Origin: Mytilus trossulus
Lineage: Eukaryota
Length of the DNA: 64,000 nucleotides
Assembly (NCBI RefSeq): GCF_036588685.1
Contig: NC_086386.1
Span: 60,698,001 to 60,762,000 of the forward strand
Direction: 5' to 3'
The stretch's first letter is position 1. Each line of letters starts with the position of its first letter. Below the pieces are notes generated by a model. It made no database searches. It had not been told where the DNA came from and was given only the letters and a program-made list of their open reading frames with translations. Made by a program: the position numbers and the translations under genes. Positions 13,333-51,900 of this stretch are shown here, piece by piece.

Positions 13333-15500
13333 TCACTTAGAACAGACTACGCATGTTAGTGGATAATTGTCAATGTACGGTGGACATTTCAATGATCCAC
13401 ATCTGGAAAGAACTTCATAAAACAATTTACCAAGATGCTGATCAACACCCCCAATGATATATTCTGGGTTGAGCTCAACACATACGTAAGCCGTAGCTGC
13501 TGCATGAACATGATTCCCGGACGCTAAATATCCATGATATTCTATCTTCCAGCCCTTGTAACATGTATTTTTTCCGGGAATCATTACAACAGATGTGGCA
13601 CGTTCTGCTCAACAGAGAGTCTTCATCGTTAGCATTGGAGGCAAAAAAGTTCGAGTCAAATTCTGCACCGAACATACGACTATATTCTCCCCCACTAGTT
13701 TTTACATAATTTGGATCTGGTGGTAGACATACATATTCAGCAGCTGCGCCTGGATCAGTATAGTGACTCCCACCTGCAAAGCCTGTAATAGTTATGTAAC
13801 ATCAGTATGGAAAAATAATAAATGCATACTTAGTAATCGGGAAATAATCCACATAATATTTTAAAACAATGAACAGTAGTTTATGTGAAATACTCGTATA
13901 CTAGTATAATAAATGAAGGAAACATTAATCTTATACTTGAAGTAATAGGCAATGGGATGATATATTTTCTAATTGAAATGTGTAAAATTGAAAACACAAT
14001 GATGCTAAAATATCACAGATTTAAAACTACCAACTACGAGTATCAAAACTCTGCATTTGATATATTAAACCTATATGAAAAAGTAAAACCACTAAAATAG
14101 TTATCAAATTAAGATACCAGGATTATAATTTAGTACGCCAGACGCGCGTTTCGTCTACATAAGACTCATCAGTGACGCTCATATCAAAATATTTATAAAG
14201 CCAAACATGAACAAAGTTGAAGAGCATTGATGATCCAAAATTTCCAAAAGTTGTGCCAAATACGGCTAAGGAAATACTGAACTAAGAGGAAAATCAAATC
14301 GGAAAGTCCATAATCAAATGGCAAAATCAAATAACAAAAAACATCAAAAACGAATGGACAAGAACTGTCATATTCCTGACTTGGTATAGGCATTTTCAAA
14401 TGTATAACATGGTGGATTAAACATGGTGTTAAAGCGCTAACCCTCTCGCTTTGATGACAGTCACATCGAATACCGTTTTATTTAAAATGATGCCTGAACT
14501 AAACAGACATAATAAATAAAATAGTCAAAATATGGGAACAGCAGTCATCATCGTGTTACAATTATAAAAGGAACAATTTAACAGAACACAAAAACATCTA
14601 TCTACAAAGTGTAACATATTTACCGGAATATATCAATTCTGTATTATTATTTGGACACTGCTTTCTTCCCCATCTAATATAAGTTGTTCCGATACCTGAA
14701 ATAAAGTAGATAATGATTGGTGTATTTCAAATAGACCATAGACACATGTTATGTTGATTGATTGGTTGCTTATTCAGACATGAAACCTTAAAACAATGCT
14801 ATGTTAAATACCATGTTTATGATACAATGGCATTTACGACACAATGGTTTCTTCAGTTAAAAGCACACTGAAGTACTCAAGTTGTAATAATTGTTTTACA
14901 GGTGAACTGAACAAGAAAGGCAAGAGATTGTTATATCTTCACATCAGCCAGATCAATTAGTCACACTCACACGAGTTAACAAAATATGCAGTTATACGTT
15001 GTTTGCTTGACTTTACGATTGTGTTTGGATCTTTTGTAAATTCTCTTCTTTATGAAAAAAGTCTTACTTGGAATGGTGTTAAATGAGCTTTGCAAAAGTT
15101 TAATTGTCTGCTCCTGTTGTTGATTTATTATCTGTTGTTGTTGATTTATTGTTTGGTGTTGTTGGATGGTGTTCTGTTGTTGTTGCATTAATGCCTGTTG
15201 TTGTTGAAGTGTTGCCTGTTGCTGTTGAATTGATGCGTTTTGTTGTGTAATCCATGCCTGTTGCTGAAGTGTTGATGTCTGATGTTGCTGAATGATTTTC
15301 TCTGGCTGTTGATTAGTTAACATCTGCTGTTGGTTTTCGATGAAGAACTGTTTTACTGTGGCATTCATTATTGCAACGATATTTTCAATTCGGTTCAAAC
15401 GATTAACGAGTACATCTGGATCATTAAGCAATAGCCTCTTCTCTTCTGAGGTGACCAGATTAACACTAAAACAAAAGAAATATATTAACCAAATGATCAT
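13333..15500 (-). pseudogene. Paralog C, frameshifted. Exons 15068-15500, 14624-14695, 13333-13782
   Basis: Exons 1 and 2 are intact. Exon 3 is 450 nt versus 461: an 11-nt deletion near 13620 removes the VPC codons, and TGA replaces the Arg codon at 13609-13611 in the ancestral frame. Confidence 0.87.
14135..14178 (-). ncRNA. Minimal type-I hammerhead ribozyme (retrozyme repeat, family 1)
   Basis: GCGUCA-CUGAUGA-GUCU(UAUGU)AGAC-GAAA-C(GCGC)G-UC-UGGCGU: complete catalytic core, stems I and II paired, palindromic loop 3, GUC cleavage triplet. Confidence 0.88.
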
Positions 15501-16067
15501 GCTTAAACTTAACTCATGTGCTTTGAAGAAACGATTTGACACAAATTGTTTCTTATCAATCTAAAGTTAAGTAAGGTGACATAGACAAAGATAGCAACAA
15601 GTTTACATGCATAAGCTAACTGGTGCATTTGAACATAACAATCTGGATATGACAATTTTTAAGAGGACGTCTTGTTTTCGACATACTCCTACATTTCCCA
15701 TAATAGTGTAACCGACCAGAAATTTTTTAAGGCAAGGATTTTTTTAAATTGTGCATATCGACTAATTTATAAAACAAATAAACAAACGAAATAATCGGAA
15801 GCGTAAATATATAATATTGTAAGCCACCCGAGAGCATCCTGTCCTATACTCGGTAGTTTACTTTAATAACACTTAAATACAATATGTGACTCCTGTAGCA
15901 ACCATACATTAGCATTAAACTACCTAAATTACTTGTCAGGTATGGTCTTCAGGTTGTTTAATATGTATTTATTGAGCGATCCCTTGTATTCGAATGTTAC
16001 TGAGCTAATGTTTGTTCCTAACGGCTTTCCATAGTTTTTATGTTTGAACGAGCGTCTTCCAGCATCT

Positions 16068-18603
16068 GGAATAGGATCCCAGTCAGGGCAACCAGTCCGG
16101 TACCCACGAATATAGTTCTTAACAAAAATATATAACTTTTGTTATAAATTGTGTAGTGTTATTATTTCTCTAGTTCTGTAACTGAATGTATATTTATTTG
16201 AAAGGGTAGGCTTTTTAGTTTGAATTTCTGTAAAAATTTGGATTGATTTAAATGTAATCTGGCGTCAGTACATAGAGTAAATTGCCTAAATTCTAGCCTT
16301 TATTCTTTCCCGGAAGTAGACAGACTGACCCTGTTGTCAATAAAAACAAAATTTTGCAACGGAATGCCGGTCATGAGGCACTGAGATTGTACTAAGACAC
16401 TTCAAAATGAATGCCTAACATGAACCAAAAGTCCCAAGGTGGCTATCAAAATTATTTATTGAGCAGGACCCTGTGTATTTACTATGATTTTCAATGCGTA
16501 TCAATGGGGCAATTAATTTGGTCCCCGTTCCTGTCAGAGAGCATGTTTTGAACACTTCAATCTGCAATTGTAAGCTCATTTTTGAAGTTTCATGGATGAA
16601 ATTTGGCTACAGGCTTCCAATTCAATAAGGAAAACAATGGTGTAATTATTTTTGAAATTTGAATTAAACTTTTTAAATCAGATTAAAATTTAAATTTATG
16701 AAATTTAAAAAAGTTTGTTTTTCAATTTAAAGTTTAAAAAAGGGTCACAGAAAGGTCATTTTGTCTGTATTATGTATTCCTACACTTGTAAGTTAAAATG
16801 GAGGGATTTTTGAAAAAATATCAGCAAACGGTATTGGAAAGAGCCACAGGGAAAGAAATAATAAATGTGTTATATGGGATAAGGGGACAGTGAAAGATGG
16901 AAAATATGGGCTTATTTCTTTCTAGTATCTTATTTCTTGGACCTGAAAAAAGAAAAGAATCCCATAGTTTCAGTTTTAGGTCTTTTAATAAGTTTTTGAT
17001 AAATTGTGGCTATTAAATAAATCATTTAAGTGCCACGGTTTAGCTATGAAAGTTGTGTGCGAATCCAGCTCAAATTTATTTAGAGCCGCATCACACACAT
17101 AACCACATATTATTGTGTAAACTCAGAAACACTTGCCAGGGGCTCTCCAATTTTACATTTTTTGGAAGATATTTAAGGTGTAGGGCTATAATATCGCTTA
17201 TTAAAGCAATTTAAACTGAAGTGTACAACAACTTTAGACTCCCTTTTAAAGATTTTGATGGTCCTTTAAAGGACCGTTAATTTTATCTGTATCTATTTCA
17301 GCAGTAGATGAAGCGAGCTATATCTTCCTTGGTTTTGGAACTTTTGAACATCAGCTTCTGGTTAAGGAAACACTTAGTGCTCTTTTAATAGTTTCACTGT
17401 TTGAATTTCATTTTCATTAATGCTTCTTTCTTAAGTTTCATTTTTAAAAGTTACTGCATTATTAACCTGTCTTTGTTATCTATATTCAGGTTGGTGAACT
17501 TGGACTAAAGTACATGAATCTCAGCCACCGACAGTTTCAGTGTCCATGAGAACACACATATGAACTAGTGGGACATTTAAACCATTTAAAAGTACAACAA
17601 CGCACAGTAGCATTAAGCGGTCAGGAAGATCAAGGATTTCCCTCCACATCTGTTAGACTATAGGAGGTGCTGTTTGACTGGTTTTAGCTACAAGTGAGAA
17701 ATTCTCTGCATCTAGCCTCTTATGTTGTATTTTAAATGAATTAAGCAGACTATTTGAAGACTTTGCTTCATATTGTATACCCTTGTTATGGGGTCTGCTT
17801 GTTTTGCATATGTAATTCTTTAAAACGGAAGATTTTTTTATTTTTAATTGAAAATAATAATATTATTAATTTATTTCTAAACAAATTTTGGTTTCAACTA
17901 AATTTCCATACACAGAATGAATTTATCTACCTTATGCAATTTACAGAATGTACATATCTCTTGAAATAAAAAAAGTTTTGATGATTTTTAGCATATTTTC
18001 TTCATGAATTTAAGATTTTCTCCGATCAATTTTCTGGTATTTGAGATGTTATAGATAATGATCTATAATTCTGTAACTGTTTGATCAATTTTTTTGAAAA
18101 GTGCAGTTTTAAGTCAGGGGAAAAAAATAAAGACTGACAGGAATATGATCCCAGTTAGGGCAACCAGTCCGGTACCCACGAATGTAGTTCTTAAAAACAA
18201 TATATAACTTTTGATATAAATTGTTTAGTGTTATTTTTTCACTAGTTCTGTAACTGAATGTAGATTTATTTGAAAAGGTAGGCTTTCTAGTTTGAATTTC
18301 TGTAAAAATTTGGATTGATTTAAATGTAATCTGGCGTCAGTACATAGAGTAAATTGCCTAAATTCTAGCCTTTATTCTTTCCCGGAAGTAGACAGACTGA
18401 CCCTGTTGTCAATAAAAACAAAATTTTGCAACGGAATACCGATCATGAGGCACTGAGATTGTACTTAGACACTTCAAAATGAATGCCTAACATGAACCAA
18501 AAGTCCCAAGGTGGCTATCAAAATTATTTATTGAGCAGGACCCTGTGTATTTACTATGATTTTCAATGCGTTCCAATGGGGCAATTAATTTGGTCCCCGT
18601 TCC
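16068..18603. mobile_element. Non-coding element with two 464-bp direct terminal repeats (16068-16531, 18140-18603), flanked by an ATCT duplication
   Basis: Near-identical repeats begin GGAA and end GTTCC; ATCT at 16064-16067 and 18604-18607; the core begins TGTCAG and ends CTGACA. Confidence 0.7.
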
Positions 18604-20300: not shown

Positions 20301-22009
20301 TATTGCTTATGGATAGTGATTTTGGTCACATGTTCTTTTTGGAGGGAAAATTCTATTGTTCTGGACACTCTTATTTCAACTGTCATAGTGAGAAGATAGA
20401 TTTCACAATTTTGGAGTGTGCAAATGGTCTTATATGAATTATTGTATAGTTATTGCTGAATCTTTTGGGAATTCATATTACTACTTTACAGGTCAGTTGT
20501 ATATACTTTTCTCACATTAATTTAATAGTCCTATAGTTTTTAACAGAGTATGCAAGATTTGGTTAGATTGATTGGATTGAATGGAGAAATGAATCTGTAG
20601 TATGAATATGACCTTTATGAATGATAAATACAATTAATTAACCATAACATGCTTTAAATCATTAAAGATTGATAAATGATTAAAATATTAAATAATTACT
20701 AAATAATAGATTATAATAGAGCATGGGAGTGCAATTATATTAAATAGAAAGAAAGCGTTTTCTTGTGTATATATAAGAAGTAAATTAAATAGTTAAATAT
20801 TCATTTTAAACCTTTATTATGTTTTAGTATCTAAGGGAACAGATTTTCTTATTTTTGGTATGTGTTCATATTATAGATATGGAACACAGTAGTTATAAAT
20901 TTATATTTATCTTCAGGTTTATATTTGATGTACATGTAGCCAATACACATATGAAGTCTTGTGACCTTCAAACTAGCACTTGAGGTAAGCAAAGAGTTGT
21001 ATTATGTTGTTTTATCATTTGGTTAGTTATTTGCTTATTTTGCTTACTTTGCGTTGCTGAGTTGCTGCATGTAGATATTTTAATGTTTTACCGTTTTGCT
21101 TAGTTTATTACTATTTATGGAATTCATGTAGAATATATTATTTACATGGTAACAGAATATTTATTGCAATTAAGTTTATGAGATGCATAAACTAATACAT
21201 GTAAGACGCAAGTTTATGTTGAGTCTTTGAGATAGAATTATAGATGTGAAAGGGAATATTATTTTATTTAGGATGTTATACAGTGCAATGTACTTGTTCA
21301 TAAACATGTCAGAGTTATCTATCTTTGCACCTGTATTTATAGTATTTTATAATTATGTTTTGTAGGGTCTTTATACGAGACAACCGTTTACTAAGACCTT
21401 TAATAAAGAATCCATAATACTACAACCGAGTCTTTATGATGCCCATTTCCACCCGATTTCATAATTACATACATTCCCTGCCGTAACACTTGTACAACAA
21501 AATGTAAACAAATGAAAAATTCATTTCACTTCCAGTGTTTTACACATTAAAAATTTGATAAACTTGATAATTGTCAACATCATCTTGAACCTATATACAA
21601 ACATGAACTAGAAATTCATATCATAGCTGATGAAATGCTTCCCCCCTTTATATTTGGTAAACAAAAATGAAACTTTGGCCTGTGAAATCCATACAAAAAA
21701 AAATAGTAAATTAATGCCATATCTTTAGTTTTCTGTAATTAGTTGATACTTCAGTTTCTTTATGTTAACTCTTTCATATACATTTGATAAAATTTACTGT
21801 TTGCAATAGCATGAATTGTTCTATATAATAAGAATGTTCTTAACCCGGGGCATAAAAACAATGCCGTATTTGGCGAACCTTTTCAACTTTTGATCTTCAG
21901 TGCTGTACAACTTTGTACTTTTTTCACTTTCGATCTTTTATATTTGGGCGTCACTGTTGATTTTTGTGAGGACAAGGCGCGTTTTTGGCGTATTGAATTT
22001 TAAACCTGA

Positions 22010-22548
22010 TGCTTTTTGTTATCTATTAATCATGGTTTTATTTGTCTAATATGTTTTCCTATTTATTTGTATTGTAGTCCTGTAATATTATGTTGTCATC
22101 TCAATGTTATATTTAACTATGCCATTAAAGTGCGAGGTTTGGCATGCCACAAAACCAGGTTCAACCCACCACTTTTATTCCCCTTTAAAAGTGTCCTGTA
22201 CCAAGTCAGGAAGATGGCCATTGTTATATTATTGTTCGTTTATGTGTGTGTTGCATTTTAACGTTGAGTCGTTTGTGTTTTCTCTTATTTTTGAGATATT
22301 GAGATAAGACGTGGCACGGTACTTGTCTATCCCAAATTCATGTATTTGGTTTTCATGTTATATTTGTTATTCTGGTAGTGTTTTGTCTGTTGCTTGGTCC
22401 GTTTCTGTGTGTGTTACGTTTCGGTGTTATGTCGTTGTTCTCCTCTTATATTTAATGCGTTTCCCTCGGTTTAGTTTGTTATCCCGATTTTGTTTTTTGT
22501 CCATGGATTTATGAGTTTTGAACAGCGGTATACTACTGTTGCCTTTAT
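22010..22548 (+). repeat. Interspersed repeat family ending in the hairpin AACAGCGGTATACTACTGTTGCCTTTATTT
   Basis: Same terminal motif near 4800-4828, 31893-31923, 52661-52690 and 54131-54160; shared internal aaaccagg..acc / tgtaccaagtcaggaa blocks. Confidence 0.65.
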
Positions 22549-23689
22549 TTTTTGATTAAAAAATTGTTTTACTTGCTCGTGCGAGCCAAGTTACTATGCG
22601 TAAGAACACAACCGTTATGTTTAAAAGAATAATATTTCCTTTTTCTGAATTTATAATATCATAACAAGTACTTCCAATGCCTTACAATATTATAAGAATA
22701 TAATCGAGACCTTTACAATTTCATTTGAAACCATTATGAAATTTCAACTTTACTTTACAAAACGTAAAATGTTTTAATTACTCATTGAATATTTTTTCTC
22801 TAAGAAATAAATTCGTTAATATGTGCCATTGATCCTGATACAATGATTGAAATCATTTACGATATATTGCTGAAAGTCTTGTACAACAGAAGAAATGATA
22901 CTACTATTAAAGAACTAGTCAATCATTTGTTGCACGAAATCTTATCAGCATACCTCTTTATCATGCTCTTATTCTACATACAGTCAAACCTACTTGAACG
23001 GTTATCTCGTTTCAGATGTCACCTGCTTCTAAAAGTCACTTCAAACTCACTCAAACGTTATCTCAAACCAGCGGTCACTAGTCTAACTAGTCAACCATTT
23101 GTTGCACGAAATCTTCATTTCGATTTTTTACCGCGTTATTTTTTTATCTTTAACTACTGAAAATTATACATCTGTTTAGCATCGAAGACAAAATAAAGAA
23201 ACGAAACCAGTTTGCAACTGCGATTCCGTGTGATTTCAATGAACTGTTTTTTAATTTGATCTATACATTGATGGAAGTTGCAACACTAACAAACGAAGTT
23301 TATATAAGGATCTGGATGGTCTTCTCTATTCTTTTATTATTTAACTCAATATTCTCTATTCTTTATTTGTTTGTCCAGTTCTCTCCATTCTCTCTATTCT
23401 TAATATTTTAGCACCCCAATATCACACTTCCTTGTTCTTTTATCCCAGTTTTCTCTATTTTCTTTTTTGTCGATTTATCTGTACAGTTGGCCTATTGTTT
23501 TCTATTTTGTAAAGACTATCCATACCCTCTTATATAGTTTGAAGTTTAACGGAAGGCGAAAGTCGACGTGAAGACATATCAACCTCCCATATATCTTTTA
23601 CTGACTTCGAGACGACAATTTGTTATCCTTAAGGTGTCGTTTATATTGAGAAAAAGACAATGGAGAAAATTTATAGTATAATTTAATCT

Positions 23690-23932: not shown

Positions 23933-24019
23933 AAGTTATACGAGAATAATGCAATCAACACGTTATACATTGCATCCGAAATCGATTTTCAGAAAACGAC
24001 ATCTGTAACAAACACACAT

Positions 24020-26420
24020 TTTTAGCTACTTCTTTACAAGCAGAACCAAATACAATGAAGTCCCAACTATGTACTGGCTTCCGAAGCTACACTAAAAAAA
24101 TCCTTACAAATATAGATTGATTTCAACATTAAGCCAGTGTTTCACTTCTTAATTGTCTATCCTACTTACTAGTACACTTGGTACAATAAAAAACCTGATA
24201 ATAAATTGTTCAAATAAGGCCTTTGAAAATAGTGGAATTAATTACTTTTGGAGTGTCAAAAATTCGTTGGAAGTACTTGATAAATTGCATGCATATATTG
24301 GTGATTTTGAATCTGTTCAAAGTTTTGATTTCCTAACCTTTATACTACTTTGTCTCATATTCTTAGTAAGAAAAAAATCACATCCCTAATTAAATGGGCA
24401 TTTAAAAAGTCAGAATGCGAGTACATATGGTCAAACTCTTTTAAGTCATTATAAGTAGCAATAAACAAAAGAACTAGGTCAATTGGTAATGCTTTGATAC
24501 TATATATGCGCTTGAATTTTTACTTGATAATATCTTTGTTCGCTTTGGAGATTCCGTATATCGTCAAGTTATTGGAATTCCAATGGGAACTTACTGTGCA
24601 CCACTTATTGCGGACCTGTTTTTGTATTGTTATGAGTTACAATTTATGACTAAAATTAGCAAAGACCCATCGAAACAACATTTTATACAAAAAATTAACA
24701 ATACTTTTAGATATTTGGATGATAAATTGGCTCTCAATAATGACGACTTCAGTATGTATACTAAAGAAATTTATTCTGTTGAACTTACTTTGAATAAAGC
24801 TAGTACTAACAATGAACACTGCCCTTTCCTCGATCTTGATATCTATATCATTAACGGGAAGCTTAATACAAAAAAATATGATAAAAGAGATGATTTTTCA
24901 TTTCCTATCGTTAGTTATCCATTTTTAGATGGTGACGTTCCCTTGTCACCATCTTATGGTGTTTATGTGTCTCAACTTGTACGATTCGCTCGTGTATGTA
25001 ACAACGTATTGGATTTTAGCGAGATAAATTTATGTATTACTGAAAAATTATTACACCAGGGTTTTCGATATCACACACTTGTCAAAACATTTACTAAATT
25101 TTATCATCGGTATAAGGAAATAATTCGTAAATATAACTCAACATGCAGACATCTTATACGTTCAGGTATATCACATTCAATCTTTTATGGTAATATTCTT
25201 CACAAATCACAAAAATGACAGTATTCACCTCAAAAGCTTACAAAACCTTTAAACAGACTTAAGAAGGGATATAGTTACGATACTGTTGCCAGGTCATTAA
25301 AGATTGCAAATGTTGGCTTTAATATTGATTCACTCATAGGGTCTTTGCATCGGAACTAAACACATTTATTTGAAAAACAGTTGTTGGCATGACACGGGTT
25401 ATGTTCTTCTCATATATTCTATGATATAGATATAGGAAGATGTGGTGTGAGTGCCAATGAGACAACTCTCCATCCAAATAACAATTTAAAAATTAAACCA
25501 TTATAGGTTAAAGTACGGCCTTCAACACGGAGCCTTGCCTCACACCGAACAACAAGCTATAAAGGGCCCCAAAATTACTAGTGTAAAACCATTCAAACGG
25601 GAAAACCAACGGTCTAATCTATATAAACAAAACGAGAAACGAGAAACACGTATATATTACATAAACAAACGACAACTACTGTACATCAGATTCCTGACTT
25701 AGGACAGGTGCAAACATTTGCAGCGGGATTAAACGTTTTAATGGGCCCAAACCTTCTCCCTTTTTCTGAAACAATAGCATAACATCACAACATAGAAAAA
25801 CATACGATAAAAAACAATTGGCAGACTTAACTCAATCAAAAAACGTATGATTATGATACTTAACCCCTCACGGTAGGGATTGTACCTGATATTCATATGA
25901 TGAAGACATAATCTTTCAATCAGTTTATTTGAGTTTTGGAGCTGGCATGTCAGTTAACTGCTAGTAGTCTGTTGTTATTCATGTATTATTGTCATTTTAT
26001 TTATTTTCTTTGTTACATTTTCTGACATCGGACTCGGACTTCTCTTGAACTGAATTGTAATGTGCGTATTGTTATGCGTTTACTTTTCTAGATTGGTTAG
26101 AGGTATAGGGGAGGGTTGAGATCTCATAAACATGTTTAACTCCGCCGCAATTTTGCTCCTGTCCCAAGTCAGGAGCCTCTGGCCTTTGTTAGTCTTTTAT
26201 GATTTTTAATTTTAGTTTCTTGTGTATAATTCGGAATTTAGTATGACGTCCATCATCACTGTACTAGTATACATATTTTTAAGGGGCCAGCTGAAGGACA
26301 CCTACGGGTGCGGGAGTTTCTTGCTACATTAAAGACCCATTGGTGGCCTTCGGCTGTTGTCTGCTCTTTGGTCGGGTTGTTGTCGCTTTGACACATTCCC
26401 CATTTCCTTTCTCAATTTTA
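24020..26420 (+). mobile_element. Penelope-like (Naiad-type) retroelement family 3, 5'-truncated, RT pseudo-ORF (longest piece 24583-25218)
   Basis: PTMYWLPKLH, VQSFDF, long insertion-in-fingers, GIPMGTYCAPLIADLFLY, FRYLDD, FLDL, YDKRDDF; no endonuclease after the thumb; the 3' UTR is interrupted by an opposite-strand repeat at about 25426-25850. Confidence 0.82.
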
Positions 26421-27688
26421 TCAATGGAACAAACGAAGCACACAAAAATCAAACAATTAAAGGGATACAATTCTAAATTGTCAGTTATCATTTCTGAGAG
26501 ATGGCCTCACAAATATTTTTGAATAACGATTTGAGTCATTGCTTATTATGAGCAAGATGCCCAGTGGTAGATAATTCATGCGCGTACAGTATAAGAGCCT
26601 GCACTTCTATACGTTATTGTTGTTTATTTCAATTTCTTTACGGTAGCCTTTTTAGCATTTCGGAATCCTTTCTAATACAAAAGGGAGTTTAATAATTCCA
26701 GTTTCCTTAGTTTTCATTATATACATCAACAATTTATTCCATAATCCTATATGTTTCATGTTTTATATTCAGTTTATTATTATCTCAAAGTTTTTAAATC
26801 CTATTACAACACGGAATTCAACATGAAAACAAAAAAAAACAGAATATAAACGACATGTTGCTCGACCAGGGGGACATAGATTCTCTATGTATACGAATCC
26901 TTCACCATTCATTTAACTCCGCCGCAATTTTGCTCCTGTCCCAAGTCAGGAGCCTCTGGCCTTTGTTAGTCTTTTATGATTTTTAATTTTAGTTTCTTGT
27001 GTATAATTCGGAATTTAGTATGACGTCCATCATCACTGTACTAGTATACATATTTTTAAGGGGCCAGCTGAAGGACACCTACGGGTGCGGGAGTTTCTTG
27101 CTACATTAAAGACCCATTGGTGGCCTTCGGCTGTTGTCTGCTCTTTGGTCGGGTTGTTGTCGCTTTGACACATTCCCCATTTCCTTTCTCAATTTTATCA
27201 ATGGAACAAACGAAGCACACAAAAATCAAACAATTAAAGGGATACAATTCTAAATTGTCAGTTATCATTTCTGAGAGATGGCCTCACAAATATTTTTGAA
27301 TAACGATTTGAGTCATTGCTTATTATGAGCAAGATGCCCAGTGGTAGATAATTCATGCGAGTACAGTATAAGAGCCTGCACTTCTATACGTTATTGTTGT
27401 TTATTTCAATTTCTTTACGGTAGCCTTTTTAGCATTTCGGAATCCTTTCTAATACAAAAGGGAGTTTAATAATTCCAGTTTCCTTAGTTTTCATTATATA
27501 CATCAACAATTTATTCCATAATCCTATATGTTTCATGTTTTATATTCAGTTTATTATTATCTCAAAGTTTTTAAATCCTATTACAACACGGAATTCAACA
27601 TGAAAACAAAAAAAAACAGAATATAAACGACATGTTGCTCGACCAGGGGGACATAGATTCTCTATGTATACGAATCCTTCACCATTCA
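26135..27688. repeat. Recent tandem duplication, 2 x 777 bp
   Basis: 26135-26911 matches 26912-27688; I found one mismatch (26583 C vs 27360 A). Confidence 0.92.
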
Positions 27689-27764
27689 CTGGAGCACAAC
27701 AAAATATATATGTATATTAAAGCATCTGAAACAATAATTAGTACCATTTACATGTTTTATTGTT

Positions 27765-35915: not shown

Positions 35916-35959
35916 GCGTCACTGATGAGTCTTATGTAGACGAAACGCGCGTCTGGTGT
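35916..35959 (+). ncRNA. Minimal type-I hammerhead ribozyme (family 1) in a retrozyme array (about 35720-36015, resuming 37620-37790)
   Basis: GCGUCA-CUGAUGA-GUCU(UAUGU)AGAC-GAAA-C(GCGC)G-UC-UGGUGU. Confidence 0.88.
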
Positions 35960-36015
35960 ACTAAATTATAATCCCGGTACTTTTGATAACTATATACACC
36001 ACTGGGTGGATTCCA

Positions 36016-37619: not shown

Positions 37620-40600
37620 TTCCACTGCTAGTGGACGTTTCGTCCCCGATGGTATCACCTGCCAAGTAGTCAGTACTTCGGTGTTGACATAAATATCAAT
37701 GTTGTGGTCATTTTTATAATTTTCCTGTTTACAAAACTTTGAATTTTTCAAAAAATTAAGGATTTTCTTATCCCAGGAAAAGATAAACTTAGTTATAAAA
37801 GTCTCTAGAAAGTGTATAACTGTTTTACATTGTACATTGAATTACTGTAAAAAAAAAAACACTAATAAAAATACATGTATACGTGCACTTTGATTAGGTC
37901 GATTTTTTTCGACGCGACTAGCATACATCAAAATTTATTTCGGATGGGGTTATTATAGGAGTAAATAATGTCCCAAAATAAAAAAACTAGAGAAAAATAT
38001 GCAACGATCAGTATCTGTGTATTAGGGAATGTTGAAATAATGAGACTGTGAAAATAAGTTATACAGAAACGCAGATCACCAAATCATACCATTATACACA
38101 GGATATTCGTTCTTCCCCATCGAATATGCCAAGACCTGATACATATTATGTTTTACGTTTTTATTTTAAATATAACAAAATTGAGATTCATGGCAAGGAG
38201 GGTCATATCTCAGTTTCTGAACAAGTCGGTGGTCTCCAATAGGATTTAATGGCAGAAGTAATGTTAAAGATCACGTGGATGTAACCTAATAATGTGCATG
38301 AAATGAAATCGCACATCAGTACTGTTAATGCCAATGTAAAAACGCTTTAAGACGTTTATTCTACCTTGGAGTTAGTTTAAGAGAGAACTGGACACGAGCA
38401 ATTGAAGCTAACATTAGCAAAATACTAGTGCGTGGTTAATTCAACATTTAGAGTATTTTTACATTAAGTTTAATCCATAGCGGCGTTCGGTCACAAGTTG
38501 TCTTATTTTTTATATTCAAATACGGCGATTTGTTATACTTTTTAATACATTGGCTGATGACTTTTTTTTATGAAATTAATGTAGAAAATGTAAGGAACTA
38601 TATGTTTTTGCTATGCATTCACAATTTGTTTTGATCCGACGTAATCGACTTCTTGACAACGCCCATTGTTGTATGACGTCAGAGAGTGAAATTACCACGT
38701 TTATTTCACATGTGAAATTATCGGTTTTTTTTAATTGGGAAATCAATGTAATTTATTGCAACCAATGTAATAAAAGAAAAATATCTATGTAGATGTGTGC
38801 ATTTATTTTAATTATTCAGTATTTACGAATCAGGCTAAGTGACAAATTGATCATTTAACGACTAGTCAAGCAAACGTGAGAAAATATAAATTGTATTATA
38901 ACAATAAATAATCTTACGTTGAGAATTGTTGGTAGCATTTCGCAACTGCTTAATTGTATGTTCCTGTTGATTGATTGATGTCTGCTGTTGTTGAATCGTT
39001 AAGGATTGTTGCTGCACTGTACTGACTTTTAAGTCGATTCAATCGATTCACTAGTACATCCGGATCATTGAACAATAACCTCTTTTCTTCAGTGAGGACT
39101 GTGTGTACCTTAAAAGAAAGAAAATAAATGAACCAAACAATTATTTCGAATATCTGTGACGGAACAAAAGTCACACGACTTAAATTCCTTATCGTATAGG
39201 CTCAAAAGGTTAGGAAAGGTCTAACGTTTATATGACATGGAAAACGGCACGATTCATCATGTCGATGTGTATATGACTTTTTATAAGTGCCCACATGACA
39301 GTTTCAACCTACCTAAAATTTATGTTGAATTGCGTAAAGAAGTAAAAAAAAATGCAAAGTTTGATAAACAGATTATCTTCCTATCTGCATGAATAGCAAA
39401 AATGTAACATGGTTAATGTTGTTTGAATAAAACATGTTTCTGCTGTTGTTTTTTTCTATGGTCGGGTTGTTGTCTCTTTGACACATTCCCCATTTCCATT
39501 CTCAATTTTATTGTCAAATCATATTCTTTGGCTTTTATATCACAAGTTATACAAGACACAGTAGACCTCAAGTACTGTGGAGAAAGCTACCTTTAGCAAA
39601 GTCGATATTTTGTATGGAAAACCCCAAAAATTAATCTCACAAAAAATGTCAGATACATATTGCTTAAACAAATCACCTCACATATAGTACCATCATAACA
39701 TATTCATAGAAGGTACACAATAGCATTATCATGAAACATAATTATAATAAAAAAAAAACCATGCCGGTCGAGGTTTTGAATGAGAAACCAGAAATATCAC
39801 TCATATCAAAAGGTAAAGCAGAAAGTGCACAATGGCATTAAGAATTTGAGAACAGTTTGTTTGAAAACTATTCACTAGCTCGAGAGGATAGCGAGTTTTA
39901 GCGTCAATAATCATTATATGAAAGAGAACATTCAATGTTTTGCATGCGAAACCCCAGGAATCATTCTGGTCAAAAGTGAAATAGGACGTTCACAACAGCA
40001 TAACGTCAAGACGAATCATTATGTTAAAGTCTGATTGGAATCCATTCACTTGATAAGGATAAATTGTGGATGGGGTGTAAGAATAGTAATATGAATCGAT
40101 TTGGGTTCTTGTGAGCCTCTAGTAAACCTAGCTATCCCAATCAATTTATACATCACGATGGTAACTTCCTGATATTCCTACATTTCATAAATTCATATTC
40201 CTTCTATTCTACAAACAAAGAACAATAGATGTATCAGATGATTTGTTGTTTTAGCAATTTAGATTTGATTGAAATACAGGTAAGTACAGGTAATCTGGAA
40301 ATGATTATTTCAATGAATATTTCTTTAAAAAAGGTTTTTAAAAGGTAATAAACCCTAAATATGACTTTTATGTTAATTTTTTATAAATATCTTGTTGGGG
40401 ATATTATATTTGCCGGTAAACTCTATTTATTTTGACTATGCTCTAATTAAATGGTGTTGATGCTAGAATAAATGCTACAAAATTATAAAGTTGTGAAAAG
40501 AGAGAAAAAAAAAAGAAAAAAAGTCTGTATGTTAATTTGGATTTTTTTAACCCATCCATACAACTCGCCGATATTTCTTTACTCAATTGAAACCTAGAGG

Positions 40601-41850: not shown

Positions 41851-42637
41851 TATACGCGAGCTGTGTTTTTTTATACATCGTGCATCCACAGAAATCAAAA
41901 CAGAATACCACATTTTTATTTATCATCAACCTTTCTCATTATAACATGTTAAGAAAACTTCAAATATCAGTACTCAAGTCTGACAGAAAAGAATGCCAAA
42001 AAGCAAACTACTTAGTATTAGAAATGGAAATGAAAAAGTTAAACATTGCACATATTCGAAATGAAATGAGACTATGTACATGTACCTGAACAAAAATCAT
42101 CTTGTATGCTGTCGGGAATTTAGCGTGAATATATACATGTTAACGTTGCTACTTGACTTATGAATATTATGACGTTACTCTATAGCAATGGCTAGACGTT
42201 AGAATAAACACGATCTATACACAACGCATTTTATCTACTTTACACAACATTTATGGTGCCGTGACTGTCGGAAACAATGGAATCGAAGTTAAAAGCAGTA
42301 CGTAGAGGACACAGAGGACAAGTTACAAAGTTATTCAAGAAATTTGATGAGATTGAGAAGAATTCGGACTTAGACAAAGACGATGTGAAACTAATTTCGG
42401 ATGCAGTTGAACAGAAACAGAGGACTATCGTGGATTTGAATGAAAAGATACTGGATTTAATGTCGGAGGAGGATGTAGAAGAGGAAATTCAAGAGTCTGA
42501 TGAGTATATGTTTAATTTAGAGTCCAAACTTCGGAAAATTAGAAAAATATATTCTAATTCTATTTCTCAAAATGTCGCATCAACGTCTCTAGATCCAAAT
42601 GCAAATAGTTTTCTACCATCTTACCCCACAAATTTAT

Positions 42638-45600
42638 TAGGCGAGTGATATAAGAGCCAAATTTACATTTTTAATGCACCTACCTAACACACGGCTAAAT
42701 TATATATCACTGGAAAGCTAAGAATGTGTACTTTCTAAATATCCCGGTCGTCAAAAGAAATTATGGTGCATTTTTTTTTAAATCGAGGTCAAAGGTCATG
42801 GGTGCAATTTCATTTCAAGGATACTTCCCGTAGAAAAATCGAGTCGAAACATATGCAAAAACGAAACAATTTTATAGGAATGCTGTATTACTGTTGGAAA
42901 AATATATTTCTATCATAGTATTAATTAATTTTGGTTGATTTTAACGGTAACGCATGTAATGTAACGTTTTCTCTCGGAGTCTTTGAAAATCAACCATAAA
43001 GTCACACAAATGTATCTGTAGTCGCCCTTGCATTATCTAAATCTTTTAATACCTCCATATCATTTGATTGTACGTATTAACAAACATATATCTGTAAATT
43101 TGATGTAAATAATCAGAAACAAAATATTTGAAACAAGGGGAAAATATAACATATGACGTATTTTTAATTGTTTAGAAAAGTCCAATGATGAGCTGTACAA
43201 TAAAATTGAGGAAGCGTTTGGTCTACTCTTAATATGAAAACCTGCCAACCGCTTTACGATCAGACAACCGTAGGGCAGATTTTGTTTTATTATTGTAGTG
43301 CAATATGTTGAGTCTGGATCATACCGCAATTTCATTTACATCACTGAATCAGATATGATAAGAGTACTAACTAACATTACTAAAGTGAGCAAAGGGCTTC
43401 TAGTATATTTATATCAACCAATTAATATAATACATCACAAGGAAAATATTATCACTCATTGTACGTCAAACTGTGTTTGATTTTACTTTAGTCGGCCGCC
43501 GTGTATCTTGAGATATCATATTAATCAAACAACATTTAATTTAAGAAGTTTGTACTTTTTTTTAAATAACGCTAGTGATGACGTTCGGCTACTTTGGCAA
43601 TAAGTATTACTTTTTTATATCTTGTTTCAACGCTTTAAAAGGGAGGACAAGAATATTCTAATATTGAACCTTTTATTTGGCTTTCTTATGTTAAACTCCC
43701 GTTAGCGTATAACCTAAATGGTCGAAACGTCGGACCAATGAGATGTTGGACAATTTAGGTGTCGGAATATGGCGATATCGGAATATTATAGCTTCATCTT
43801 AACTTGTAATCTCATCATTCTTATCGGTCAACATATCCATACAAAGACAACTTCATTTGCATGTGGATATATCAGTACAGCAGGGGTTTAGCTCAAAGAG
43901 GACACAAGATCTACTATATACAGATTGAATTAAAAATTGGGAATGGACACGAGGGATTTGTCAAAGAGACACCAACCCGTTCAAAAAGCAGGTAACAGCT
44001 GAAGACCACCAATGGGTCATCAATGCAGCAAGAAAGTCCGAAACCCGGAAGCGTTCTTCAGCTGGCCTCTAAACAAAAATGTACCAGTTTGAAATGATAA
44101 TGGACGTCATAAGCTTCGAAATATATTATAGAAATTCATATAAAAAATCATACAAAACTAAGAAAGGCCAGAGGCTCCTGACTTGGAACCGGCGCAAAAC
44201 TGCGGCAGGGTTAAACATGTTTTTGGAAATCTCAACCCTCCCCCTATACCTATACCAATGCATGAACAGATCAAATCTTGTAGATAGTAGGATGACATGA
44301 TACCGGACCGATGTTACCTTTTAGCAAACCAAAGTCATACAGAGACTTATTGTTTCTGTAGTTTGGTCGACATTGTCTTGGATAAAATTTTGACTCCAAG
44401 AAGAAAACTAATGCCATGTAGAATGTATGCCCCATTTTCTAATCTCCTGGTCAGTCAAACTGGTTAACAGTTATCAAAGGTGTGTCCATAAAAACGGTGC
44501 ATTTGTAATGATAAAACTAAATCAAAAAGAGTAAAACAAATATTTATAGATAACATACATTTTACTAAAGCCATCTAAGAACTTTGTCAATAGGAATATC
44601 GTATGCTTTATTAACTGTCGCAGATGCACCACCATCAAAAAGACAATACCGCAATGTTTTTAAAGCAGGTGGCATATAAATTTCAATTGAATAATCCAGT
44701 GAAATGTTTTTAGATAATGGATATTCATCTGATTGAATAACAACTTTACCCTATATCTGCTTCCGTAAAATACTAGTAGCTGCATAAAGTGCTTGCAGCC
44801 AGTTTCGCAGTCACTGCTCAGATCTTTATAATTGACAGACTGTATATCGCAGTCATTTTAGACGGGTAATTTTATGTCATTACGGCATAGGACAAAATTA
44901 TAGAGCTACTGTATACAATATTGGATGTACCTTTGCCTTGTTGAGGCTGTATATATGTAACTATAAAATTGACCATATGTTTTTAGTTTTTGTTGAATCT
45001 GCAGTTTTCTCGGCGGCGATCCTCGGGCAGAAACTAAGCCCGGTTAACTGATCAAGTAATTAAAAAATAGCTCTTGACTTTCTGATTTCAAATTTTGTAG
45101 CAAACATTTAGCGATGCAAGCTCGATAGTAAAAAGATTTAATAGTAAAATTGTCATGAGTTATTTTTTAAATCAGATCATTGTAGGAGATATATGTAGTA
45201 ACACACAATACAGCTTGAGTTTGCTCCTCAGATGATACCTTACGAAGTTGTTTTATAACATAAACGGTACCAATTTTCCTGCACCAGATGCGCATTTCGA
45301 CAATACATGTCTCTTCAGTGATGCTCGTGGCCAAAGTATTTGATATCCAAAGCTTATATAAAAGGTGAAGAGCTATAATCCAAAAGGTCTAACAGTATAG
45401 CCAAATCTGTGAAAGGAGTCAGAGCTTTGCATGAGGGAGATACATTCCTTACTTTATAAAAATTTCTAACATTGTGTAAGAGAAAATTTTAATAACACAA
45501 AAAAATCCGTATTTTCATGGCAGTACCGAAGTACTGGCTACTGGTACTTACTTATAGGCTTTATACATTTGCAAAATATACAAACAGAAAATCAGAATGA

Positions 45601-46590
45601 GTTGTAGATCTACTTGCCCTCGTTGATATATGAGAAGAGACTGGTCGGTAGAATTTGTAGTTTCTATGTAGTAAATACATGACAGACTATGGATCTGTGT
45701 CAATCAATTGATAGTTTTTTTTTTGCTTTTTAACTAGGAAGGGTTTCATTGTGAACTGGACTGTGAAAATTTGACACAACTCGGAAGATTTTTTACAATT
45801 TTCCGATACGATTCCTGTTTTAGAAAGGGGTGAATTCTACAGAACTCAAAAACGATGTTTTACTTTGATTTTATCTTAATTTCGGACAATTTTATATCTA
45901 TTTAGGCTACACTGAAGTTAAAGATCGAAAAAGAACCGTTTAAATATGAATTATCGTACTCTAATAGCACTATTAAGTACACGGAAATCGACTAATTTAT
46001 TCAGTAAAAAACGATAACGAAATAGATAAGGGATTCCGGAAACTATAGTGATTTTCCCCAACATCATAAAATTACAGAAATTCGTGATTTTAAGAAATGA
46101 AAGGATAAAGTCTTGATCTTGAATGAAAAAAACGATAACTGATGAGTAATTTGGTGTGTTCTAAAACGGATAGAGTGCAAACGCATTTAATAAAAATTTA
46201 ATTGTAGATCCGAAAAGGTCAGGATTATGAAAATTTTCGTACAAAATGTCAAATATTTAGAAGGAATGCAAAAGCATGCGGACTTACAGGTGTAAATATT
46301 GTTATTCATTATCTTAAGAATCGAATTCATTTAATTATTCTGTCTAAAAGAAGAGATACGACTAATTTGCTTTGCTTGAACAATATGTCGTAATTTTATA
46401 ATTTAAATTTCAACTAATTTCTGAAATAAACGTCATTTTTACAAAAACTGCACCGTACGATTTTGTGACGACCGGGCAAAAATCAAAGTTAAATCATTTT
46501 TCTTTCATTTAAAAAAGAAATTAGCCGTGTGTTAGGTGGGTGCATTAAAGTCCTTAACTAGACGTCTTTTTCAAATATTACACTCGCCTA
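42638..46590 (-). mobile_element. Academ-like DNA transposon, degenerate, nested in BEL gag
   Basis: Termini TAGGCGAGTG...CACTCGCCTA with imperfect sub-terminal inverted repeats (ttaatgcacc.acctaacacacggctaa); TAT 3-bp TSD; minus-strand remnants ALYAATSILRKQI, DEYPLSKNIS and FIQDNVDQTTET at about 44340-44800. Confidence 0.7.
45281..45324 (-). ncRNA. Minimal type-I hammerhead ribozyme (family 2)
   Basis: GCAUCA-CUGAAGA-GACA(UGUAU)UGUC-GAAA-U(GCGC)A-UC-UGGUGC; AUC triplet; stems fully paired. Confidence 0.88.
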
Positions 46591-47018
46591 TATCGCTTAC
46601 CAATGCCAATGTTATACGCAGCAATGAAACTGAAATTAATGTTCAGCCAACCAATTTTGATAACTTCCGCTCCATGCAAAATACCCATCGTGACTTGCAG
46701 TCTACAAATAACTTGTACAACCAAGGCTTTTAATCGGTATCAAATAGCAGTCAAAACCACAGATTACCTAAACTTGATTTACCGCACTTTGATGGGGAAA
46801 TTTTACAATGGCAAACCTTTTGGGATTCCTATGAATCAACTATTCATTTCAACAGTACTTTGACTGAGGTACAGAAATTTAGTTACTTGAAGGCCCAACT
46901 CCATGGCCATGCCGCCCAAACTATTGAAGGTTTCGCACTCACAAATGCCAATTACACCACTGCCGTTAATTTGCTCAAAGAGCGTTTTGGATAGCCTCAC
47001 AAGATTATTCATGCCTAC

Positions 47019-48578
47019 ATGAAAGCTTTAATGGATCTTCTTTCACCGTCAAATGATTTGAACAGCCTAAGAAGGTACGAAGACCACCTAGAAACGTACG
47101 TAAGAGGTCTTGAATGTTTGGGTCAAACACAAGAAATGTATGGCGCGCTATTAGTACCTATAATTATTAGTAAACTACCAGTTGAAACGAGAAAAAGTAT
47201 TGCCCGTGAATATGATAGCGATCATATAACTCTTAACAACCTCAGAAAAGCCATCACGAAAGAAGCGAGAATTCTTGAAGCAGGGCAATTTACCGATCGC
47301 GACAGTTTACATACTACCGCAACATTTCTAACCGAAGCTCGTTATAAAACACAGCGAAATTTCAATACAAACAATCCACGTTTTAATGACAAAAAACGTC
47401 CATGCATCTACTGCACTGGTATACATTTTCCGGGAGATTGCACGATAAGTTCTGACGTGAATGAAAGACTGAACATCGTAAAGCAAAAGAAAAAATGTTT
47501 CAACTGTCTAGGAAACCACGGTGTTTCCGAGTGTAAATCACGTAACCGATGTAAGAAATGCAACAAGAAACATCACACCAGTATTTGCGGGGAACAAGCT
47601 ACAGATGGAAAAGAACAGGAGAGCAAGGAGAAATCAACCGTTGTAGGTTTGGTAAGAACAGAAGAACCAGAAACCGCAGTAATGTATACCTCACAACACA
47701 CAAGCGTTTTATTGAAAACAGCTATCGCACCAATAGCATACGGGAAACGGATCACAGAAGCTAGTATTTTATTTGACGAAGGTGCCAAACGGTCATTCAT
47801 TACTCAGAGCATAGCAGACAAATTACAGATAAGACCAAGCGGAAGGGACACAATTGAACTGTCAGCTTTTGGAGACAAGGAGAATAATATACGCCATTTG
47901 GATACAGCAACCGTTCAACTACACACTGACAAAGGTGAGATTGTAAGCATTAATGCATTGCTTGTTCCAGATATTGCAGTCCCACTTCAAAACCAGACGA
48001 AATACTTTACACGCAATTTGCCATACTTGAAAGATTTAAAGCTCGCACATCTGGCAAATAACGCTGATAGCTTTGAAATTACACTCTTGATAGGAGCCGA
48101 TTACTATTGGGATATAGTTCAAGATCACGTGATAAGAGGGAATGGACCTACAGCCGTAGCATCAAAACTTGGTTACTTGTTATCTGGACCGGTAATAAGA
48201 AACGGAGAGAAATCCTTGACTTCATCAGTTCTTCTGAATGTTACTTCACACCATGCAGAGGAAAGCGAGATCGATAATTTGTGGAATCTAGAATCGTTAG
48301 GAATACGTTTACCACAAGACGATGAGGAGAGTTTTGTAAAGACTTATCAACAAGACTGTATCAAATTTGAAAACGAACGTTATTCTGCCAAGTTGCCATG
48401 GAAACTGGATCATCCGGATCGCCCTATACTGTACCCGCTCGAAATCCAAACCAACGTTAACAATTTAGATGACAAAAATGATGATACTTCAACAGAGAGA
48501 TTGACACGAGTTCTACCAAATCGAGAGACATCTGTCCGAGCTCGAGAGAACATAAAGAAATGGACTAACCAAAAGTGA
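47019..48578 (+). pseudogene. BEL/Pao gag-protease ORF remnant (5' gag pieces at 42277-42637 and 46594-47018)
   Basis: CIYCTGIHFPGDC, CFNCLGNHGVSEC, CKKCNKKHHTSIC; protease; YSAKLPWK joined directly to the C-terminal LYPLE motif; stops upstream. Confidence 0.85.
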
Positions 48579-48990
48579 ACTAATAGCTGACAATTTTATT
48601 TGAATAGACTTCGTTCAAAGTGAAAAATTAATAAGTGAATTATTTGAATTTGTTTTAGAAAGACAATTAATTATTTAATTTTCTGTAATATCTATTCGAT
48701 TGACATTTAAAGTAATTAATAATTTCATATTTTAACTTTTGCCGGCCCCGAGAATGTCGGGAATTTAGCGCGAATATATACATGTTAACGTTGCTACTTG
48801 ACTTATGTATATTATGACGTTACTCTATAGCAATGGCTAGACGTTAGAATAAACACGATCTATACACAACGCATTTTATCTACTTTACACAACATATGCA
48901 TATGTCATCCTTGTTTTCCAATACAATAATTGCACTCAATAGATTATGATAATAACATAAAAATTATTATGTTGTATATATCATATTTTA

Positions 48991-51900
48991 TTATTTTGAA
49001 CAAACGACGCATGTTAGTGGGTAATTGTTAATGTATGGTGGACATTTCAGAGATCCGCATTTCGTTACAACGTTATATAAGAGTTTACCAAGATGTTGAT
49101 CAACACCTCCGATAATATACTCTGGCTGTATGTCAACACAAACGTAAGCAGTAGCAGATGCATCCCCATAATATCCAGAAGCTAAATATCCATGAAATTC
49201 CATCTTCCAGCCACTGTAACATGTATTCTTTCCAGGAATCATTATAACAGACGTAGCTTGAGTCGTTCTACAGAGAGCACAAGGGACATCCTCATCGTCA
49301 GCATTGGAAGCAAAAAAGTTGGAGTTAAATTCTGCACCGTACATTCGTCCATGATCTGATCCACTGGTCTTTTCATAATTTGGATCAGGTGGTAAACAAA
49401 CGTATTCAGAAGCGCTGCCTGATTCACTATACTGGCCACCACCAGCATAACCTGTGAAGTAAAATTGACCATGCATTCTCTTAACAAAACTTTTTGTTTT
49501 AAATACTAAGGCTTGTCTACCTAAGGAATATATTTCATTTGCTGCATTTGACAAAACCTTGACTGAATTTTGGTCCTCAATGCTCTTCAACTTCGTATTT
49601 TATTGCCATTTTAACTTTCTCGGAGGGAATTGGGCATCACTGATGAGTCTTTTGCAAACGAAACGCGCGTCTGGCTTTAAATACATAATTCAACCGTGGT
49701 ATTTATGATGAGTTAATACACAAAACGTTGTTTGAATAAAAGTTTCGATAAATATAAAAAGATTTTCTCATTTTTAGGCTTCCTTTACGTGAAAGCATAA
49801 AACCAGCATATATGTTCAAACGGTGTCAAACGGCTGCTATAATACAATTTCTTAAAATTTACAATGAAAAACTGATACAACTGTTATAATCACAATGTTT
49901 TTTTCTTGATCGATAACACTTATTCTCGTTGCGCGGTTAAAACAGTTAATATTATGTACATAATATAGTACTTTGAAAACAGCAGTGTTGTGATATAAAG
50001 ACTGCGAAATGTCAATTGTTTTGTTTTGAACGAACGTTGAAGTCAAAAATACATACTGTATCAATGCATATATATATATATATATACAACTCGTCTAAAC
50101 ATCAACCCAACAATGTTAAATCTGTAAATTTGCTTTCGCAAATTTTTGGTTCTTCCCTCGGCGGGATTCGAACCCATGCTACTGTGATATCGTGACGCCA
50201 AATCGCCTGCACTGCAGCCGTCCCGCTAGACCACACAACCACTTGGGCTCTCAAAAAAAAGAGCTTTCGCTGGCCGTGTGTTACCTTGCCACGTCAGTTT
50301 TAATCTAGCGGCGTACTACAGTACATGATATATAAGGCATGCAGATGTTAATGTTACAGATCAGCTAAATTATCTATAGTAAAGGATCCTAGAGTTGTAC
50401 TCAGACGTACTTATATATATATACATTATGTACACAGCCATGTATCACCATCATTGATGGCGATCCGATGGATACATCTGTTGTAGAGTTGTCACTGACT
50501 CAGACGTACTTATATATATATATATATGTATGGGAATTAAGATCCATTATGTTACATCTTGTGATCAATTTGATTCGGCAATCTCCAATGGCAGTCAGCA
50601 GGGTTAAAGAACATCAGTTGTTAGAACTGTTAGTCAAATGCGTTTTGTTTAAATATACTTTTTCACTTTTTTTGGTCTTTTGGAAAATGTTATTTGTGCT
50701 GTTTATAGACCCTTCTTCAACGAAATTTGTTTACATGCACACGTATAAAAATTGCGGTTTTTATCCAACGCAATCATAGCCTAGGTTTGAACGTAGTTTT
50801 CAATTTAGACTCGTATATATGAGAATAATATACAGTTAACTACTACAAATAGATACAGAAACAGTCTTGACCAAGGGCCGAAAGGAAAAGTCGAATCAGT
50901 ATCCTCTTTTAGTGCACATCATTTTTCGCAAAGATATTTTCGCAAAGATATTTTCGCAAATAAAGTGTTATAGCTATACTAAAAGATATATAAATATATT
51001 CCATTAAAAATGATAGCATTTTCAGAATAAAGCGCCACCTGATTCATACAACAACTCAACTCAATTATCACAAAACTTTTTTAGAGTCTATTGTCGTGCT
51101 ACAATCTAAGCTTTATAAATCAGTGTACATTGGTCTACTCGAAGTATTAAATCAGCCTTAGCAAGAAAGTGGTCAAAATATTTCTGAAACTGTAACCGAA
51201 ATCAAAAATCTTTAAAAATAATAAATGTCAATCTTAATGCACCAGCTCCAGATGCGAATTTCAGTTATTAATGTCACGATAGTGATACATGTATTTGCGG
51301 ACAAAATAAATGATAGACCAATGCTTTGAACAAATATTCCTTGCATATTTTATGACGTGTTTTTAAAATAAAAATATCTGTTCATCTCCGCTTTTTGATG
51401 ATTGTTCTAGCTAGATATACGTACGGACATAATTCAAGCATTAATAATATATGATACATCTAATCAATCATATTTTTCTACCTGAATAAACTAATTCTGT
51501 ACGATTACTTGGGCACTGCTTTCTTCCCCATCTGATATAAGTTGCGCCAAAATCTGAAATCGACATGATGATGTTTGTTGTTTAGTTGAGGTTCTGTCAA
51601 CATACTTATACATTGCAAATTAGTTTTATTTTGTATGAAAAAAAGTTATAACGTGATTCTCGGAGATAAATATTGTCTGAAGTACTTTGTTCTGATGGTT
51701 CTACAAGTTTTACAATTGCATATACCTCAGACCTTTAGGTGCGAGATAATATATATAAAGTGTTCAGAGGTCAAATGTTTTTCACCATTTGAGATAACGC
51801 AATACATAAACAAATTTCTTATTTCTACTGAAGATAGTTCTTGTCTGCATTAAATTAAATGTTTGCATAAAATTCAGAATTTCTGTTAATTTCTGTATAT

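Follow-up and report, generated by a model that had tools for sequence, protein, structure and literature searches.

Hammerhead ribozyme motifs in a 64,000-nt stretch of the Mytilus trossulus genome (the window; NCBI RefSeq assembly GCF_036588685.1, contig NC_086386.1, forward-strand positions 60,698,001 to 60,762,000) are very likely dispersed, mostly 5'-truncated retrocopies of the Mytilus non-long-terminal-repeat (non-LTR) retrozyme, a noncoding unit of about 355 nt that carries one canonical type I hammerhead and would be copied by a Penelope-like element (PLE). In published work, the mussel holds about 5,000 such ribozymes in two ribozyme families, with units of 350 to 390 bp and a 353-nt construct (PMC7229834), and a non-LTR retrozyme is recognized as a short unit of about 170 to 400 nt joined head to tail (PMC7229834). 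The window loci resemble the Mytilus galloprovincialis retrozymes (Cervera and de la Pena 2020, PMC7229834) in mussel host, type I hammerhead, unit length (350 to 390 nt), more than one ribozyme family, abundant unit RNA, and a ribozyme-blocking segment; they differ in that the window copies are single, truncated, and not tandem, and fall into at least four subfamilies rather than two.

Direct reading, with Rfam and descriptor scans, bore out the positions and strands of four hammerhead cores listed in a first-pass annotation of this DNA (Table 1), including the weaker stems of the 49.6-kb motif, which keeps 9 of 12 pairs (all 12 are kept in the other three, among them the 14k and 45k motifs). 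The same annotation proposed a search with Rfam hammerhead models, which agreed in part: RF00163 (Hammerhead_1) matched three of the four motifs (14135-14178, 33.0 bits; 35916-35959, 31.1 bits; 49637-49674, 23.6 bits), with no score at or above the gathering threshold of 34 bits, and the 45.3-kb motif was absent from the window matches at E ≤ 1. The first two belong to the main subfamily, A1, which matches the Rfam consensus of canonical hammerheads through helix II, core, and helix III and scores just under the threshold; the missed motif is subfamily B. A structural descriptor scan gave three strict matches (14k, 35.9k, and 45.3k; stems of 6, 4, and 2 to 3 bp), and the 49.6k motif was recovered with a relaxed core pattern. 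Markov-simulated control windows (n = 100) held a mean of 0.02 descriptor matches, and none of the 100 had a match with stem I of at least 6 bp and stem II of at least 4 bp. Near 37630-37660, a further hammerhead candidate on the opposite strand was rejected as a GAAAC-GUC look-alike that lacks CUGANGA and went unmatched in both scans.

The motifs had been called minimal, a term that does not fit. Minimal hammerheads lack helix III and loop 3 and have a longer helix II, a shorter helix I, and an extra nucleotide at the stem II 5' end, whereas a 6-bp helix I, a 4-bp helix II, and a 1- to 2-bp helix III with a palindromic loop define the canonical metazoan type (PMC4209133). Here, helix I has 6 bp, helix II has 4 bp, and helix III has 2 bp with a GCGC loop, so helix III and loop 3 are present and the motifs are not PLE-minimal hammerheads. 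Both the 14k and the 45k type have the GCGC loop, as the first-pass annotation had noted, and the 8-nt helix III palindrome.

That annotation's claim of compensatory change between these two types also stood. Of the 44 positions, 12 differ between the 14k and 45k motifs. Eight of these differences pair up as four both-sided changes (stem I, G-C/A-U; stem II, U-A/A-U twice; stem III, C-G/U-A); of the remainder, one converts G-U to G-C and three are unpaired. Nine random substitutions at paired positions retained all 12 pairs in only 15 of 200,000 trials, and slid-register controls gave at most one both-sided pair, versus the four observed. This covariation is a single inherited contrast between two lineages, not many independent events, and it records selection on the source families rather than function at the window loci.

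Two families proved to be an undercount. A covariance model built from the four motifs and used to scan the window found three more, all decayed (21948-21991, plus strand; 30136-30173, minus strand; 51245-51288, minus strand, weak at E = 0.32), and by sequence likeness at least four subfamilies (A1, A2, B, and C) are represented. When the ribozyme and some 100 nt upstream of it are compared, the two A1 copies agree at 88%, and likeness to them is 76 to 79% for the 49.6k copy, 67 to 70% for B, and 66 to 69% for C; the 49.6k and 30.1k copies stand apart from A1 as A2, and the decayed copy at 21.9k is the fourth type, C. Pattern scans outside the window found two loci in metagenome contigs (L001 and L002), neither with a full unit, and none in viral contigs or in genome contigs.

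The first-pass assignment to type I hammerheads of a Mytilus retrozyme family, with a unit near 350 nt, is supported by tiling, by reads that close the unit, and by comparison with PMC7229834. Three overlapping window pieces (34159 onward, 37624-37743, and 35780-35953) tile a unit of about 355 nt, the first of them beginning with the first base after the cut. Four public runs, which carry a coded species label and may come from a species other than that of the window, were aligned to 35560-36460 at 85% likeness. In RNA run X21, 538 reads pass beyond 36015 (agreement, 0.99) into sequence seen at 37626 onward, and 721 reads arrive before 35780 from sequence seen near 37715-37743; the unit closes head to tail at the family level. 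A second subfamily, alike in core and different in flanks, is also present among the reads. Among X21 first mates over 35777-35900, the minus strand exceeds the plus strand 4- to 5-fold, and the neighboring end of a repeat termed X (described below) is balanced (364 versus 397); this excess is on the ribozyme strand, assuming the usual library orientation. The middle piece of the unit includes a segment complementary to the ribozyme core (duplex, -18.8 kcal/mol), which fits the statement that some predicted mussel circles do not leave the ribozyme free (PMC7229834), and it carries a UUCG hairpin common to A1 and subfamily B.

The strong form of the first-pass reading would have the window loci cleave as dimers and yield circles of 350 to 400 nt. 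That they are themselves active retrozymes of this kind is very improbable, even though base pairing between two copies is conceivable through their 8-nt helix III palindromes (-13.3 and -10.5 kcal/mol) and the family is expressed with a sense bias in X21. The criterion for an active non-LTR retrozyme is a run of at least two units that each carry a complete hammerhead (10.64898/2026.07.22.740005), and no locus with two ribozymes was found by window self-comparison, tandem finder, or covariance-model scan; Tandem Repeats Finder reported no array at any ribozyme in the window, and two arrays exceed one unit (35.7-37.8k and 29849-30230). With one ribozyme per locus, the window loci can neither excise a monomer nor release a circle; they are offspring and not circle-producing units. 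They are like the solo monomers of vertebrates, which Li, Clavereau and Pollet (2026, 10.64898/2026.07.22.740005) read as dispersed single offspring that active arrays have left and that do not transpose, although that study covers vertebrates, insects, and a coral, rests on phylogeny rather than junctions, and, in its accessible text, names no mollusc helper. Reads at least 99% alike to the 35.6-36.5k stretch are few (24 of 6,021 in X21 and 20 of 3,732 in X24), so the 35.7k locus is not the main RNA source. As for cleavage as dimers, most invertebrate type I hammerheads are reported to cleave as monomers, with dimer dependence described for amphibian and PLE-minimal motifs (PMC7761336) and, in the accessible literature, not for mussel ones, and a cloned mussel genomic repeat cleaves at about 0.1/min, abundant circles being found in M. 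galloprovincialis (PMC7229834).

The insertions have a common 3' end and variable 5' ends. In four of five independent A1 insertions (14k, 37175, L001, and L002) the 3' end lies 39 to 41 nt past the cleavage site, and 35993 is the point at which reads pass out of the unit into mixed flanks (394 reads in X21, agreement 0.41; 372 in X24, agreement 0.48). The 27-nt tail-only insertion at 37175-37202 has empty sites in tandem units 1 and 2 of its host repeat and no target duplication; a 16- to 18-nt match to the A1 tail end at 44467-44484 (minus strand) is possibly another such insertion. The 35724-36015 plus 37622-37792 array comprises about 1.65 units with deletions and a mid-unit end. Its start at the cleavage-site base is clearest in the 34159 duplicate, which arose from a segmental duplication (33579-34283/35149-35824), and is suggestive only for self-cleavage. 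The cDNA (complementary DNA) would include 40 nt beyond the cut; therefore the template would be not a cleaved linear monomer but a circle or multimer, which suggests that reverse transcription starts within circular or uncleaved RNA. This 3' end and the nesting with 3' untranslated regions (UTRs) described below were not met in the accessible text of PMC7229834.

The retrozyme copies would have arisen as follows. Transcripts of source arrays elsewhere in the genome would be cleaved by their ribozymes and closed into circles by ligation, as published for M. galloprovincialis. A Penelope-like reverse transcriptase (RT)/endonuclease would nick AT-rich DNA and begin its copy at an internal site of the RNA, some 40 nt downstream of the cleavage/ligation junction. 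Frequent early termination would give single-ribozyme copies that share a 3' end, vary at the 5' end, and have little or no duplication of the target; such copies cannot release a circle and are decaying. Close parallels come from the Anolis Poseidon PLE, with 5' truncation, a fixed 3' end past the hammerhead, AT-rich targets, and insertion into repeat ends (PMC11167929, PMC8557442). The lizard element initiates internally, has a 30- to 40-bp tail, cuts at ATT, and can use uncleaved RNA (PMC11167929), and uncleaved RNA may likewise serve as template for the mussel unit. Unlike Poseidon, the mussel unit has no open reading frame (ORF) after the ribozyme, closes as a noncoding loop, and bears a canonical rather than minimal ribozyme.

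Three features of the copies, a fixed 3' tail, truncation at the 5' end, and insertion without target duplication, are typical of PLEs and would suit pseudo-LTR stumps of an autonomous hammerhead-bearing PLE (Poseidon, Neptune, Nematis, or Hydra type) in place of a noncoding circle. Hammerhead-bearing PLEs also occur in mussels (PMC7229834), retrozymes are held to derive from pseudo-LTRs (10.64898/2026.07.22.740005), and the decayed C copy is followed at once by an X-related repeat. We nevertheless regard this origin as unlikely: past the tail, both window DNA and RNA reads lead back to the hammerhead within about 355 nt; the ribozymes are not of the PLE-minimal type; no ribozyme unit runs into an RT/endonuclease ORF, the RT at 36016 being an inserted C-terminal fragment with a 3- to 4-bp duplication; and the RT fragments in the window, found with Naiad-type queries, are all relatives of one clade, Naiads being reported in the accessible literature to lack canonical hammerheads.

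Several points weigh against the retrocopy reading. Of the five A1 insertions, one, the 35.7-37.8k array, has its end elsewhere than at the tail. The metagenome contigs L001 and L002 are both short, and L001, a marine one of low coverage, looks like a chimera: positions 1-222 are a mussel-type retrozyme end, and 223-1124, joined to it, look bacterial by eye, probably the result of chimeric assembly and not of a transfer. Folding of copies in context gave z-scores of -0.67 to +1.31 and never a hammerhead as the minimum-energy fold, and helix III had a probability of 0.0 in a program that ignores magnesium and tertiary contacts, so cleavage of the copies is a prediction. Run X24 has no strand bias, and the aligned runs show no pile-up of read ends at the cleavage site; reads span that site, which fits circles, uncleaved multimers, or fragmentation alike. 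Identity with the published Mytilus families, which is very probable, is judged from host, length, and anatomy.

Table 1. Retrozyme-related features of the window (positions 1 to 64,000)
Feature	Position	Strand	Remarks
Hammerhead core	14135-14178	-	Best preserved; 44 nt identical to locus L001; predicted cut 14141/14140
Hammerhead core	35916-35959	+	Predicted cut 35953/35954; one stem I pair G-U, G-C in nearly all family reads
Hammerhead core	45281-45324	-	Subfamily B; AUC cleavage triplet; 12/12 pairs
Hammerhead core	49634-49677	+	Core intact; 3/12 pairs broken
A1 copy, 5'-truncated, about half a unit	14097-14274	-	12/12-pair hammerhead, then about 40 nt of tail
A1 array, left part	35724-36015	+	Starts at cleavage-site-equivalent base; internal deletions, hammerhead, tail, first ~60 nt of next unit
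A1 array, right part	37622-37792	+	About unit positions +60 to +230; core-complementary segment; UUCG hairpin as in B
Tail-only A1 insertion, 27 nt	37175-37202	+	In third tandem unit of X
Duplicate of 5' part of 35.7k array	34159-34283	+	First base exactly at cleavage site; no hammerhead
B copy, 5'-truncated	45250-45550	-	Inside 3.95-kb inverted-repeat element nested in LTR retrotransposon
A2 copy	49489-49710	+	Antisense within an intron
Decayed A2-type array, more than one unit	29849-30230	-	Hammerhead remnant 30173-30136 without CUGAUGA 5' part
Decayed subfamily C copy	21815-22027	+	Broken hammerhead 21948-21991; tail adjoins X-related repeat 22030-22550
B hammerhead remnant, decayed (probable)	51245-51288	-	Weak, E = 0.32
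Repeat X, putative Naiad-type 3' UTR piece	14272-14608	-	Upstream of 14k copy; last ~22 nt resume at 14099-14078
Naiad-type Penelope-like insertion, 5'-truncated	36016-37620	+	Last 44 RT codons, putative 3' UTR with three ~270-bp tandem units, X end

The candidate helper comes from the repeats that the retrozyme copies touch. Because repeat X is twice found behind an RT C-terminus in the same orientation (about 11800-13095 and 36016-37620), we infer that it is a Naiad-type 3' UTR, and several repeat families of the window appear to be 3' UTRs of Naiad-type elements. The three tandem units of about 270 bp (36513-37318) in the 36016-37620 element are too long or diverged for the tandem finder's report. 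Many Naiad-type RT fragments lie in introns and spacers (24057-25356, plus strand; 1631-2655, minus strand; 11796-12586, plus strand; and others), all found by tblastn with Naiad-type queries and all relatives of one clade; a Pfam search gave no match for them or for the host exons at E ≤ 0.1. Naiad diagnostics are DKA for DKG, a CxC motif, a KR-rich block, and an RT at the C-terminus (PMC8557442). The largest fragment, 24057-25356, is about 90% identical to P0002, and the diagnostic motifs were read in its relatives rather than in the window's own fragments: 34 of 120 have DKA and 4 of 120 have DKG, and the CxC motif and KR block occur in P0116.

Retrozyme copies and Naiad-type 3' UTRs nest reciprocally. 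The 14k copy is inserted within the last ~25 nt of a repeat X end, and the 1.6-kb Naiad-type insertion splits the A1 array, with a 3- to 4-bp duplication at its junctions. Each of the window's three A1 events touches X in the same orientation, within 70 bp; random placement reproduced three such contacts in 13 of 200,000 trials (15 of 200,000 with T-rich targets), a comparison that is post hoc (about five repeat-end families are present, and two events share one nest) and suggestive only. Among the 15 joints listed from X16 contigs, 13 pass from an X end into the unit, and their shorter side is mostly under 30 letters and T-rich, which makes them a lead only. A shared 3' motif of retrozyme tails and Naiad ends was also considered: a GGTATCTT-like word lies near the end of one other Naiad-type family and was rejected as evidence, being absent from X ends and present at unrelated sites.

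Tentatively, then, the circles may be mobilized by a hammerhead-less Naiad whose RT would start 40 nt past the ligation junction, the 3' ends of retrozyme and Naiad being mutually targeted; this is one possibility among others, and we hold it with reserve. PLEs have already been proposed as retrozyme helpers (literature including 10.64898/2026.07.22.740005), and animal retrozymes are described as showing no motif that points to a helper element (PMC7761336). Among the papers found, none links Naiad to mussel retrozymes or describes the +40 end; subscription papers and supplements may hold one.

In the window (GC content, 29 to 37%), three-exon genes are clustered on the minus strand: about eight short-chain-collagen-C4-like paralogues with a coiled-coil exon, a short exon, and a C-terminal exon. 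The best relatives of one host exon are Mytilus proteins (77 to 84% identity), several of them named short-chain collagen C4-like. In the paralogue at about 39150-34900, a second exon was not detected and the last exon is partly duplicated. The 14k copy lies on the sense strand in intron 2 of one of these genes and could at most slowly cut its host pre-mRNA. That its ribozyme has been kept to do so, tuning that paralogue, would accord with its sense orientation, its 12/12 pairs, and an intron bounded by GT and AG, yet we find this hardly credible: the motif is identical to family copies in L001, so that its intactness may simply reflect youth; the paralogues with an annotated exon 2 lack the motif in the corresponding intron; the hammerhead fold is disfavored in its local context; and the published cleavage is slow (PMC7229834).

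Other elements adjoin these loci. An LTR retrotransposon at 42110-48895 has 141-bp LTRs (42110-42250 and 48755-48895; 98.6% alike) and DUF1759/DUF1758 domains; its first ORF is interrupted, and it is internally shortened and lies about 70 to 100 bp beyond the end of the last coding exon of a host gene. We take it to be of the BEL/Pao type. Nested in it is a 3.95-kb element (42638-46590), presumably Academ-like, with terminal inverted repeats starting TAG and a 3-bp TAT duplication; it holds the subfamily B ribozyme and other repeat pieces and may have moved them. The window also contains a near-perfect 777-bp tandem duplication (26135-27688; 99.9%), either very recent or an assembly artifact, a 464-bp direct repeat (16068-16531/18140-18603; 96%), and a weak Rfam Histone3 stem-loop match (17236-17280, minus strand; 22.1 bits; E = 0.13), below threshold and probably due to chance.

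The element is of a known kind, its family is probably known, and the insertion anatomy adds one modest mechanistic lead. With about 5,000 ribozymes per mussel genome (PMC7229834), several per 64 kb are expected, and the motifs are in that sense ordinary. The common +40 3' end would mean that the template spans the junction, as a circle or an uncleaved multimer, and predicts where RT starts. Reciprocal nesting with the putative Naiad 3' UTRs makes Naiad a concrete helper candidate; if true, the Naiad reading would name the helper that PMC7761336 calls not deducible and would give its initiation site.

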